From NCBI GenBank assembly GCA_963794975.1, contig CAWCGL010000009.1:174023-238022 (forward strand): a stretch of 64,000 bases of DNA. The letters run 5' to 3'. Under the pieces are notes generated by a model that saw only the letters and a program-made list of their open reading frames with translations, ran no database searches and was not told the origin of the DNA. This stretch comes from an uncultured Pseudomonadota bacterium (GTDB taxonomy: Bacteria; Pseudomonadota; Gammaproteobacteria; Steroidobacterales; Steroidobacteraceae). Positions 24,608 to 26,857 of this stretch are shown piece after piece (the stretch's first letter is position 1; each line of letters opens with the position of its first letter). The position numbers and the translations under genes are program-made.

Positions 24608-25300
24608 TCAGTGCTCGCCCGGCAGCCAGCGCACGTCCTGCTGCATCTCCTGCGCGAGCGGCGCGACATCGGTGCGGGTGCGCTCGAGCACCGCGATGCC
24701 GCCGCCACCCTGTGCCGGCACGACGATCCCGCTCATGCCGCCCTCGTGGAAGGTGCGCCGCGCGGTCACGCTCTCGTGACGCAGCAGCAGCACCGTGGCC
24801 GGGCCCTGCGAGGTCTGCAGCACCAGGTGCGGTACGTAGTGGCCGTGGAAGAAGCAGCTCTGCGCGTACACGATTTTGTCGGAGGACAGGTCGAGAGCGA
24901 CGCCGGCCCCGTTCAGCGCGGCGGCCAGCTCCGCCGCATCGACGTGGCGCTCGCTCAGCCAGCTCTCCGGCTCGCCCTTGACGTGGTTCACGAGGTCGCG
25001 AGCCAGGGTGTCACTCGGGCGCAGCACCCACGTGCCCAGCACCACCGCGCTCGCCACCAGGATGCTCGCCGCCAGGGCCCACTGCCGCCACAGCGGCTTC
25101 GCCCGCGGCCGCGGCACCAGCGTGGTGACCGGGGCGCTGAGCGGGGGCTCCTGCAGCACGCGCTGGATGCGTCCCTCGAGGCTGAGCATCTCGGTGCGGA
25201 ACGTAGCGCAGGCATGGCATTCGCTGAGGTGCTCCTGCAGCTCCGCCGGTGCGGACGCCGGGTCAGCGCCGATCAGCAGGCGTGCGTGCTCGCAGTTCAC
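24608..25300 (-). CDS. anti-sigma factor (zinc-binding HxxxCxxC, DUF3379-like), single TM
   Basis: MNCEHARLLIGADP..LQEHLSECHAC carries the ZAS motif. A TM segment follows (WALAASILVASAVVLGTWVL). A 4-nt overlap links it to the upstream ECF sigma gene. Confidence 0.75.
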   Translation of the reverse strand: MNCEHARLLIGADPASAPAELQEHLSECHACATFRTEMLSLEGRIQRVLQEPPLSAPVTTLVPRPRAKPLWRQWALAASILVASAVVLGTWVLRPSDTLARDLVNHVKGEPESWLSERHVDAAELAAALNGAGVALDLSSDKIVYAQSCFFHGHYVPHLVLQTSQGPATVLLLRHESVTARRTFHEGGMSGIVVPAQGGGGIAVLERTRTDVAPLAQEMQQDVRWLPGEH

Positions 25301-25908
25301 GCCGCCCCCCCTGCGTCTGCCACGTCCGGCGCGGCGCTCATGCCGCAGATCACCCGCAGCTTGTTGCGCGCCCGGAACAGCCGCGTGAGCACGGCCGTGG
25401 AGGACAGCGCCAGTTCCTGCGCGATCTCCTCGGTCGTGAAGCCGCCGATCACCTGCAGGACCAGCGGCTCTCGGTATTCGATGGGTAACTTCATGATCGC
25501 GTGACGCAGGGCAAACAACTCACTATCCGGTTCCGCGGCCCCCGGGCTGGCCTGGATCTCGGCAACTTCCTCCAGCGGCACCATTTCCAGGCGCTTGCGC
25601 TCGTACAGGCGGGCGTGCTCGCGGCGCACGATCGTCAGCAACCAGGGACGGGCGGCGCTGGGATCCTTCAGCGCCTCGCGCGAACGCCATGCCCGCAGCA
25701 GCGATTCCTGCACCACGTCCTCCGCGATAGCCCGGTCACGCGACAGCCACTGGGCGAACCGCAGCAGGTCCGGGCGCATGGATTCGAACAGCCTGACGAT
25801 AGGCTCACCCGGCGCCGCTCCAGGCAGCCGGTCGCTGATAGATAAGACCGGGGATTCGGGCGGAGAATTGCGCATAGCTTGTAGCTGCAGCGGATTATAC
25901 GCATCCAT
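25297..25908 (-). CDS. ECF-type RNA polymerase sigma factor
   Basis: It has region 2 (LLRFAQWLSRDRAIAEDVVQESLLRAWR) and region 4 (PIEYREPLVLQVIGGFTTEEIAQELALSSTAVLTRLFRARNKLR). Confidence 0.88.
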   Translation of the reverse strand: MDAYNPLQLQAMRNSPPESPVLSISDRLPGAAPGEPIVRLFESMRPDLLRFAQWLSRDRAIAEDVVQESLLRAWRSREALKDPSAARPWLLTIVRREHARLYERKRLEMVPLEEVAEIQASPGAAEPDSELFALRHAIMKLPIEYREPLVLQVIGGFTTEEIAQELALSSTAVLTRLFRARNKLRVICGMSAAPDVADAGGAA

Positions 25909-25986
25909 GATCGCCGTCCCGGCAATATCGCGTCAGACTGACCGGTCTTCTCGCCCAACTGTGACATCACCGCGACAGGAGTAACC

Positions 25987-26469
25987 GTGAGTGCGCTAAT
26001 CCAATGGCTGATCGAATGGCCCCGCCGCGTTGCCGGGCATATCGCCTGGCTCGCCCCCCTGTTTGCCCGCATCACCGTCGGCTGGGTGTTCCTGTGGAGC
26101 GGCTGGGGCAAGCTGCAGAACCTGCCCCTCGTGACCGAGAACTTCATCGGCTGGGGCATCCCGGCGCCGCACCTGCTCGCGCCCTTCGTCTCCGGGGTGG
26201 AGTTCTTCGGCGGCCTGTTCCTGCTGCTGGGCCTGCTGACGCGCATCTCCGCCGCGGCCCTCGCGGTCACCATGATCGTGGCCATCAAGTCGGCCAAGTG
26301 GGCCGACGTCGACTCGCTCGAGACGCTGCTCGGCTTCGACGAGTTCGAGTACCTGGCGCTGTTCCTGTGGCTCGCCATTGCCGGCGCCGGTGCGGTGTCG
26401 GTCGATCACTTCCTCGAGCGCTGGTACCAGCGCACCCGGCCGGCGGCGCCGGGAACGGCTCTGCACTGA
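25987..26469 (+). CDS. DoxX-family membrane protein
   Basis: 160 aa with four TM segments. RITVGWVFLWSGWGKL and FVSGVEFFGGLFLLLGLLTR are DoxX signatures. The gene is divergent from the ECF sigma gene. Confidence 0.85.
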   Translation: MSALIQWLIEWPRRVAGHIAWLAPLFARITVGWVFLWSGWGKLQNLPLVTENFIGWGIPAPHLLAPFVSGVEFFGGLFLLLGLLTRISAAALAVTMIVAIKSAKWADVDSLETLLGFDEFEYLALFLWLAIAGAGAVSVDHFLERWYQRTRPAAPGTALH

Positions 26470-26561
26470 AGGCCAGGCGGACGCAACAAATGCGCGGTGC
26501 TGCCGGTCTCCTGCAGTACCGGGCCTTACCCCGGCAATACCCAACAACGAGGAATGCACCC

Positions 26562-26813
26562 ATGCGATTGAAAAACTCAGGTCTCGCGGCCGCCACGGCC
26601 GCCGCCATGCTGTTCAGCACGGCCATGGTCGGCACTGCCGTCGCCGGCACCGGCACGAACGTGCAGTGCGCGGGCGTCAACTCCTGCAAGGGGCAGTCGG
26701 CGTGCAAGAGCGCCAACAACGCCTGCAAGGGCCAGAACTCCTGCAAGGGCAAGGGCTTCCTGGAGATGAGCAAGGCGGACTGCGACGCTGCCAAGGCGAA
26801 GGCGGCGAAGTAA
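26562..26813 (+). CDS. bufferin-type RiPP precursor paralog (Sec signal peptide + 6-Cys core), orphan copy
   Basis: 83 aa. The signal peptide [28 protein letters not shown] is followed by the core [62 protein letters not shown] Shine-Dalgarno is present. The product is near-identical to that of the gene at 50072..50320. Confidence 0.85.
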   Translation: [83 protein letters not shown]

Positions 26814-26824
26814 CGCGGCGCGCA

Positions 26825-26857
26825 CCGGTGCAGCGTCCAGGACGGACGCTGCACCGG
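26825..26857. terminator. perfect 14-bp hairpin after the orphan precursor gene (between convergent genes)
   Basis: CCGGTGCAGCGTCC-aggac-GGACGCTGCACCGG begins 12 nt after the stop. There is no strong U-tract. Confidence 0.5.

Follow-up and report, generated by a model that had tools for sequence, protein, structure and literature searches.

How does a bufferin precursor whose gene lies far from any maturase gene come to be regulated and modified? The question is raised by a 64,000 nt stretch of DNA from an uncultured member of the Steroidobacteraceae (assembly GCA_963794975.1, contig CAWCGL010000009.1, positions 174,023 to 238,022 of the forward strand), the whole of which is called the window here. 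One precursor gene in it, termed bufA2', follows doxX and faces the genes of an extracytoplasmic function (ECF) sigma factor and a membrane anti-sigma factor; a second precursor gene, bufA2, adjoins the maturase genes bufB and bufC. Bufferins were described in 2024–2025, and a survey of the MNIO landscape leaves the modification of maturase-remote precursors open (PMC12452194). The arrangement offers a testable case, with near-identical cores, different signal peptides, one maturase pair, a candidate regulator with a motif, and natural relatives that have the remote precursor only. On balance, the sequence evidence favours a single Buf2-type bufferin system split over two loci with a common regulator. 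The window has a G+C content of 70 %, and its nearest database relatives are uncultured Steroidobacteraceae.

Two precursor genes

26562..26813, + strand: bufA2', doxX-linked precursor paralogue of the BufA2 family (NF050166, 83.8 bits; orthologues after doxX in 53 of 75 genomes)
50072..50320, − strand: bufA2, precursor adjoining the maturase gene (NF050166, 91.1 bits)

The products of bufA2' and bufA2 have 83 aa and 82 aa, respectively, and both exceed the curated cut-off of 60 bits of the NCBIfam model NF050166 (BufA2 family periplasmic bufferin-type metallophore). As read from the sequence, each has a basic N-terminus, a hydrophobic stretch and an AVA/ASA site, followed by a core with six Cys. 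In bufA2' the Sec-type signal peptide ends in AVA, and the core combines the six Cys with four C-K motifs. The match to the family model, the signal peptide with six Cys and the presence of MNIO and DUF2063 genes in the genome place the peptides in the BufA2/Buf2 (BUF_6/12Cys) group. The preliminary description of this DNA, made from the letters alone, had spoken of bufferins in general; that name stands, and can be narrowed to the Buf2/BufA2 six-Cys type. Thiooxazole formation at the central Cys residues and copper binding by the mature peptides are predicted from the family.

The two cores are identical at 46 of 49 residues, and the substitutions listed in the preliminary description (VQCAG/VHCSG, GFLEM/GFVEM and differences in the tail) were all recovered. 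Positions 26661–26813 and the reverse complement of 50072–50221 agree at 134 of 150 sites (89 %, with one 3 nt indel), close to the figure of about 90 % obtained earlier by hand. A codon-aware alignment, which had been proposed at that stage, gave 89.8 % DNA identity over the 49 core codons, with 13 of the 15 differences at third positions, as the hand alignment had indicated. Nonsynonymous divergence (dN) in the core is 0.026 and synonymous divergence (dS) is 0.59, a dN/dS of ~0.04, and all six Cys and the C-K contexts fall within this part. The 32 leader codons are only 60 % identical, with a dN of 0.49 and a dS of 0.81, in agreement with the reported divergence of the signal peptides. Flanks of 100–150 nt beyond both open reading frames (ORFs) show ~55 % identity in a global alignment, which is the background level; sequence similarity between the two genes ends at the ORF borders.

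Relatives were sampled by a scan with the anti-sigma alignment, one genome per species, which yielded 80 regulator loci, all of them from Steroidobacteraceae or from unclassified gammaproteobacterial or proteobacterial metagenome-assembled genomes (MAGs). In tblastn searches with the window proteins the gene order was the same throughout: carbonic anhydrase, bufA2' where present, and doxX, then, divergently, sigma, anti-sigma and S9 peptidase. A BufA2 gene lies behind doxX in 53 of the 75 scorable loci and is cleanly missing from the other 22. The doxX-linked leaders begin MRLKNSG... or MRKNSTG..., and the bufB-linked leaders MNSRxLSS..., usually with KGHSAC. In a neighbour-joining tree of 111 precursor sequences, the clades of which are given without bootstrap values, the 52 doxX-linked copies from other genomes all fall into a single clade, apart from the bufB-linked copies. 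Because the doxX-linked copies are monophyletic, the duplication is an old one that took place before this Steroidobacteraceae group spread, and both copies have been maintained by selection. The conserved doxX/sigma/DUF3379 neighbourhood in 53 of 75 genomes means, likewise, that the remote position of bufA2' is not an accident.

A core DNA identity of 89–90 % might also be expected of a recent or decaying duplicate, or of a copy kept similar by gene conversion, that has no function of its own. However, the dS of ~0.6 excludes a recent copy or conversion, 53 species-level genomes have an intact ORF, which is monophyletic and carries its own leader, and the similarity halts at the ORF borders. 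Recent duplication and gene conversion were rejected on the dS value together with the precursor tree, and a functionless copy is extremely improbable. The preliminary description had argued for purifying selection without recent duplication, and this is borne out: it is close to certain that bufA2' is a real second precursor, conserved under selection.

Layout of the two loci

Locus 1 (24.6–26.8 kb), in addition to bufA2':
25987..26469, + strand: doxX, 160-aa membrane protein (Pfam DoxX, 76.7 bits; GTG start)
25297..25875, − strand: ECF sigma factor, 192 aa from the conserved ATG (Pfam Sigma70_r2 and r4_2; the longest ORF reaches 25908)
24608..25300, − strand: membrane anti-sigma factor (Pfam DUF3379, 75.7 bits against a gathering threshold of 33.2, residues 9–222)
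Locus 2 (48.4–50.5 kb), in addition to bufA2:
49134..50018, − strand: bufB, MNIO-family bufferin maturase (NF050167, 394.5 bits against a cut-off of 310; Pfam MbnB_TglH_ChrH, PF05114, 386.8)
48361..49137, − strand: bufC, DUF2063-type maturase partner (Pfam DUF2063, 64.5 bits against a cut-off of 27.2)

The Pfam matches (DoxX, Sigma70_r2/r4_2, DUF3379) confirm that bufA2' stands behind doxX and faces an ECF sigma gene paired with an anti-sigma gene of the HxxxCxxC type. The doxX gene lies opposite the sigma gene at every related locus whose flank is covered. Several NCBIfam matches stay below their cut-offs: HvfX, the best one of DoxX (64.9 bits, cut-off 80), HvfC for BufC (43.3 bits, cut-off 142) and PRK12517, the best one of the sigma factor (174.7 bits, cut-off 197). 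The sigma factor has the characters of the ECF class (group 4), namely Sigma70_r2 and r4_2 without a match to r3, and the start of the anti-sigma gene overlaps the sigma stop codon. The start of the sigma gene is most likely the ATG at 25875 and not 25908; this ATG and its reading frame (MRNSxPxSPV...) are kept in 71 loci. A start at Met44 was rejected, the residue being Met or Leu across genomes and the frame upstream of it being conserved.

The distance from bufA2' to bufB is 23.2 kb. No DUF692 or DUF2063 gene adjoins bufA2', as originally described, and neither bufB nor bufC was found within 10 kb of the regulator locus in any of the 80 loci. The label 'orphan' that had been attached to bufA2' is correct insofar as no maturase gene adjoins it, but it is overstated, as stand-alone bufferin precursors have already been reported to be common (PMC12452194). 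The bufA2-bufB-bufC operon is without doxX, and tblastn across the 64 kb window detected no further copy of DoxX, BufB or BufC. When metagenome contigs were scanned with BufB, 80 maturase loci emerged, and no DoxX was found at those of close relatives. Divergent from bufA2-bufB-bufC, at 50640–56357 on the plus strand, lies a gene for a UvrA-like protein of 1,905 aa with duplicated ABC modules, which is syntenic in all close relatives.

A promoter-like motif common to both loci

25922..25948, + strand: ECF-type motif before doxX (exact here and in 67 related loci; GTG 38 nt past the end of the −10 box)
25845..25871, − strand: ECF-type motif over sigma codons 2–11 (exact; conserved in 74 loci)
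50470..50496, − strand: ECF-type motif 149 nt before bufA2 (exact)
26483..26509, + strand: one-mismatch motif GCAAC-N16-CGGTCT, 53 nt before the bufA2' start (candidate promoter of bufA2' itself)
25894..25899, − strand: TATAAT box, 18 nt upstream of the ATG at 25875 (GATTATA conserved in the 79-locus alignment)

Alignment of 79 sigma–doxX intergenic regions revealed two invariant blocks, GATTATA and GGCAAT-N16-CGGTCT, the latter pointing at doxX. The window contains three exact copies of the motif GCAAT-N16-CGGTCT; 100 shuffles contained none. Scored with a position weight matrix (PWM) from the relatives, the doxX, sigma and bufA2 sites reach 41, 51 and 26 bits, and the next best site in the window 7.8 bits. 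This next site, a one-mismatch match (GCAAG...CGGTCT) at 38441–38467 on the plus strand, is probably due to chance. ECF promoters typically consist of an AA-containing −35 element, a 16 nt spacer and a GTC-containing −10 element, a layout that GCAAT-N16-CGGTCT resembles.

The divergent pair of motifs recurs in nearly all 80 regulator loci; the ~1.3 Mb of sequence flanking them contains hardly any further exact match. Among the maturase loci from metagenomes, 21 of close relatives have the motif ahead of bufA2-bufB-bufC, and six more have it ahead of bufBC (five exact, one CGGTCC). In all, 26 metagenome loci have the exact motif at the corresponding position, and the CGGTCC variant occurs at the maturase loci numbered L098, L167, L169 and L170 (L numbers denote the sampled loci). 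Most close relatives (BufB identity of at least ~77 %) have the maturase-locus motif, and it is absent from distant ones.

At the sigma gene the motif overlaps coding sequence. Sigma codons 2, 3 and 10 (CGC, AAT, GTC) are invariant in 71 of 71 genomes and codon 9 (CCG) in 70 of 71, third bases included; the codon AAT is rare, AAC dominating elsewhere in the sigma gene. Codons between the motif boxes vary freely, and codon 11 changes its amino acid yet keeps the T. Invariant third bases within the boxes amid variable codons therefore point to selection on the DNA and not on the peptide. Three distant DUF3379 lineages have the motif, in forward orientation, immediately next to the start codon of sigma, at 0–7 nt; one of these reads CGGTCT-ttatac-ATG ATT AGC GAC, as compared with CGGTCT-tatct-ATC AGC GAC in the window. 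A start codon 0–7 nt past the −10 box, as in these lineages, looks leaderless. We infer that the sigma-side motif would serve as an autoregulatory promoter of the sigma gene.

Other promoter-like boxes accompany the motif. The TATAAT box is likely to be a housekeeping-type −10 element for basal expression of the sigma gene; a generic scanner for sigma-70 promoters and terminators made no calls in the region 24.4–27.0 kb, and called no full sigma-70 consensus pair at this box. At locus 2 a TACAAT box lies ~40 nt before the bufA2 start (50355–50365, minus strand), with equivalents before bufB in L098, L108, L111 and L112, a sign that a further promoter, of housekeeping type, may lie downstream of the ECF-type one. 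In the four closest genomes (L006–L009) the GCAAC copy before bufA2' has a changing spacer between preserved boxes, and in more distant ones it is missing; an internal promoter before bufA2' was therefore rejected as a general feature, being confined to the five closest genomes.

The motif could be understood differently, as the operator of some other regulator or as a promoter acting in reverse, for the UvrA-like gene at locus 2 and crosswise at locus 1, with no regulon in common. The sigma-side copy sits inside the sigma ORF, an unusual position that is awkward for a forward promoter: a transcript begun there would lack the ATG of the conserved sigma ORF. Read backwards, both copies at locus 1 would be given ordinary 5′ leaders. 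Moreover, the divergent UvrA-like gene is found at every motif-bearing maturase locus, and synteny alone cannot assign the motif to one side. However, the layout matches that of ECF promoters as known from the family, the copy before bufA2', with its boxes kept and its spacer drifting, is sensible only in the forward direction, and the distance to bufA2 in close relatives (mostly 126–154 nt) is tighter than that to the UvrA-like start (62–192 nt). The forward position next to the sigma start in three distant lineages speaks the same way, and a palindromic operator is made less likely by locus 2 having just one copy. For these reasons the motif is read preferentially forward, toward doxX, bufA2', bufA2 and sigma; the reverse orientation was considered in detail and judged less likely, and an operator or reverse promoter without a common regulon is improbable. 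The sigma-side site might give rise to two sigma isoforms, or its promoter might mainly feed the anti-sigma and peptidase genes. That both loci are co-regulated through the motif can be held with good confidence, and the division into a regulatory/accessory and a maturation locus put forward in the preliminary description gains from it: within the window, the same 11-base motif is found at sigma, doxX and bufA2BC only, and it is conserved at these places in relatives.

Proposed maturation in trans

Maturation of bufA2' in trans had also been put forward in the preliminary description, and relatives without a precursor gene beside bufBC bear on this directly. In six metagenome loci (L098, L100, L102, L108, L111 and L112) bufB follows the motif directly, with no room for a precursor; these loci keep the UvrA-like neighbour, and 21 other loci have an adjoining bufA2. 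Regulator and maturase loci could be paired within genomes for five MAGs, all of which have bufA2'. Three of them (L006/L166, L007/L170 and L058/L168) hold both precursor copies, 23–25 kb apart. The remaining two (L044/L167, contig CAVYHZ010000002.1; L048/L169, contig CAWDJK010000003.1) have bufBC under the motif without an adjoining precursor, and an intact six-Cys doxX-linked precursor 36–38 kb away on the same contig; L167 and L169 retain the motif and the divergent UvrA-like neighbour. Since bufBC has been retained under the motif after loss of the neighbouring precursor, a substrate encoded elsewhere is needed, and the doxX-linked bufA2' is the obvious candidate in these genomes. According to published work on Caulobacter, the signal peptide is dispensable for modification of BufA1, recognition going through the core. 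A dispensable signal peptide would fit two precursors with divergent leaders and near-identical cores.

Alternatively, bufA2' may be co-regulated with the maturase operon without being a substrate of BufBC, and may be exported unmodified to form a thiol/disulfide or metal-handling pair with DoxX. The gene is always linked to doxX and never to bufBC, it has retained a distinct leader since the old duplication, and 22 genomes that lack bufA2' still have the doxX and sigma module; the literature, too, allows for stand-alone precursors that 'are not modified' (PMC12452194). Yet the core, with six Cys and C-K contexts, is held at a dN/dS of ~0.04 relative to the maturase-linked copy, the precursor-less bufBC operons are intact under the motif with the doxX-linked copy on the same contigs, and recognition in the family goes through the core. 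An unmodified bufA2' is accordingly rather unlikely. Modification of bufA2' in trans by BufBC appears probable, on the strength of the bufBC-only arrangement in two genomes and six metagenome loci and of the remote copy in both of those genomes; this part of the earlier proposal is thereby strengthened but not proven.

A proposed split-system model

The two loci can be joined in a tentative sequence of steps. The anti-sigma factor would be inactivated by a stress that is periplasmic or thiol-reactive, copper and oxidants being the likeliest. The freed sigma factor would then recognize GCAAT-N16-CGGTCT and transcribe its own operon, doxX-bufA2' and bufA2-bufB-bufC. In the cytoplasm, BufB and BufC would turn the central Cys residues of both precursors into thiooxazoles. 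Sec would export both peptides by means of their different signal peptides, and in the periplasm the peptides would act as copper buffers, assisted by DoxX as a redox accessory in the membrane; these roles are suggested by the family.

Several points tell against the model, among them the two already raised over the motif, i.e. the sigma-side copy within an ORF and the UvrA-like gene that accompanies the maturase-locus copy. Everything proposed on regulation and modification is deduced from sequence, and the inducing signal is a guess from the family. The 22 of 75 genomes without bufA2' show that this gene is dispensable. The bufBC-only genomes are represented in part, and a further precursor elsewhere in them is conceivable. 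DoxX, finally, is not required for modification or copper tolerance in Caulobacter (PMC11626156). With these points taken into account, the split system under one regulator is still considered the more probable account of the locus as a whole.

The anti-sigma factor and neighbouring genes

22343..24511, − strand: prolyl-oligopeptidase family S9 protein with an RR-containing N-terminus, MGGINRRDLF... (Pfam Peptidase_S9_N and S9)
26815..26866, no strand assigned: GC-rich hairpin between the convergent bufA2' and beta-carbonic anhydrase genes (−45.6 kcal/mol, z = −7.2 relative to shuffles)

The anti-sigma factor carries the zinc motif H24-x3-C28-x2-C31. Homologues near and far keep H24, C28 and C31 without exception, and nearly all of them keep C3. 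A zinc-binding anti-sigma (ZAS) N-terminal domain is predicted from this motif. The periplasmic part contains invariant His, Cys and His residues within YAxxCxFRGxxVPHLV, again in close and distant members. An AlphaFold2 model (predicted local distance difference test, pLDDT, 81) comprises an N-terminal helical domain, a single membrane helix and an alpha/beta periplasmic domain. Compared with the PDB, its sole similarity is a weak one to MucB/RseB (E 4e-3, template modelling score, TM, 0.33), which served as a hint only. The protein does not belong to the NrsF family (PF06532), its only Pfam match being DUF3379, with one predicted transmembrane helix. The zinc anti-sigma factor of the preliminary description is thus present by its HxxxCxxC motif, and is specified as a DUF3379 protein, not a member of the NrsF family known from Caulobacter.

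The S9 peptidase gene lies 96 nt downstream of the anti-sigma gene, is syntenic in most of the 80 loci and possibly shares a transcript with the anti-sigma gene; the terminator scan made no call between the two. Anti-sigma processing and peptide trimming were considered as possible roles of the peptidase. On folding, the hairpin at 26815..26866 is terminator-like, without a U tract. An Rfam scan of the whole window gave no match in or near either locus. Elsewhere in the window it identified a c-di-GMP-I-GGC riboswitch (61402–61486, minus strand, 75 bits against a gathering threshold of 59) and a group I catalytic intron (12227–12475, plus strand, 62.2 bits against 50).

The wider DUF3379 family

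The DUF3379 family comprises 1,717 representative clusters at E <= 1e-3, and a full-text literature search on DUF3379 gave one unrelated paper and no functional study. The present loci place it for the first time in a functional setting and supply a candidate for its cognate promoter. Four distant lineages, a small sample, were inspected; a fifth locus proved to be of the Steroidobacteraceae type. In two of the four, a signal-peptide protein of 134–154 aa made up of EG[K/S]CG repeats is encoded directly after sigma-DUF3379:

L171:3541-4005, + strand: EG[K/S]CG-repeat gene after sigma-DUF3379 (NF050137 match)
L174:6809-7273, + strand: EG[K/S]CG-repeat gene after sigma-DUF3379 (NF050137 match)
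L173:3184-3588, + strand: EG[K/S]CG-repeat gene after sigma-DUF3379 (NF050137 match)

These proteins, from gammaproteobacterial lineages, score 35–38 bits with NCBIfam NF050137 (HvfA/oxazolin; cut-off 19.5), and no MNIO was found within 6 kb of their genes. In the other two of the four distant lineages no precursor was found near sigma-DUF3379. The placement of a precursor beside a DUF3379 regulator and away from a maturase is not confined to Steroidobacteraceae.

The recurrence of ECF/DUF3379 pairs with two precursor classes hints at a broader control rule for copper-binding peptides. It is tempting, if decidedly speculative, to regard such pairs as widespread dedicated sensor-regulators for thiooxazole metallophore peptides, with the precursor travelling with the regulator; at present this generalization is doubtful. 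The regulator-linked peptide, metal-free or metal-loaded, might be read by the periplasmic domain of the anti-sigma factor, with its His/Cys/His residues and MucB/RseB-like model. If so, there would be a feedback loop between buffer capacity and expression.

Comparison with known systems

The basic biology is as expected for the bufferin family; bufferins, distant ECF control and stand-alone precursors are already known. New here are the DUF3379 type of regulator, the conserved three-way split, in which regulator, doxX and one precursor lie apart from the other precursor and the maturase, a defined promoter motif and genomes with only the remote precursor. Among peptides modified in trans, the prochlorosins are a familiar case, in which one enzyme, ProcM, acts on several precursors, some of them in trans, the leader being conserved and the core variable. 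The present pair, for which maturation in trans is proposed, combines almost identical cores with dissimilar leaders (signal peptides).

Bufferins, their maturation by MNIO and DUF2063 proteins, copper binding, and an ECF sigma factor acting on a distant buf2 operon have been established in Caulobacter (PMC11626156). Locus 2 resembles bufA2-bufB2-bufC2 of Caulobacter vibrioides, with a six-Cys BufA2 that has a Sec signal peptide, an MNIO and a DUF2063 partner (PMC11626156), and, like the bufferin 2 operon of that species, is a maturase operon without doxX (PMC11626156). Control of the operon by a distant ECF sigma gene that lies beside other bufferin genes parallels SigF/NrsF of Caulobacter (PMC11626156), and would be the corresponding arrangement here. 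Unlike the multi-pass NrsF of Caulobacter, the anti-sigma factor is a single-pass DUF3379 protein with a zinc motif (PMC11626156). The regulator locus, moreover, holds doxX and a precursor paralogue of the same class, whereas a complete Buf1 cluster is found at that place in Caulobacter (PMC11626156). The promoter motif was derived independently and not from the Caulobacter system.

In Haemophilus influenzae RpoE2/HrsE, and in Neisseria SigE, control an hvf/DoxX cluster in response to oxidants or hypochlorite (PMC7907618; PMC11252979). As in these species, an ECF sigma factor with a zinc-motif anti-sigma factor at a separate locus would have MNIO, DUF2063, DoxX and precursor genes as its targets (PMC7907618; PMC11252979). 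Their anti-sigma factor, however, is a 67-aa cytoplasmic peptide, and their precursor is of the EGKCG-repeat type, with the four biosynthetic genes together (PMC7907618; PMC11252979).

The MNIO survey found stand-alone bufferin precursors to be common and raised modification from another locus as a possibility (PMC12452194). It placed sigma/anti-sigma genes in Buf1 but not in Buf2 clusters, and described stand-alone genes without conserved neighbours (PMC12452194). Like those stand-alone genes, bufA2' is a Buf2 precursor away from the MNIO gene in an MNIO-bearing genome (PMC12452194). Unlike them, it has a conserved doxX/ECF sigma/DUF3379 neighbourhood and a motif in common with the maturase operon, and there are relatives in which the remote copy is the only precursor seen near bufBC (PMC12452194).

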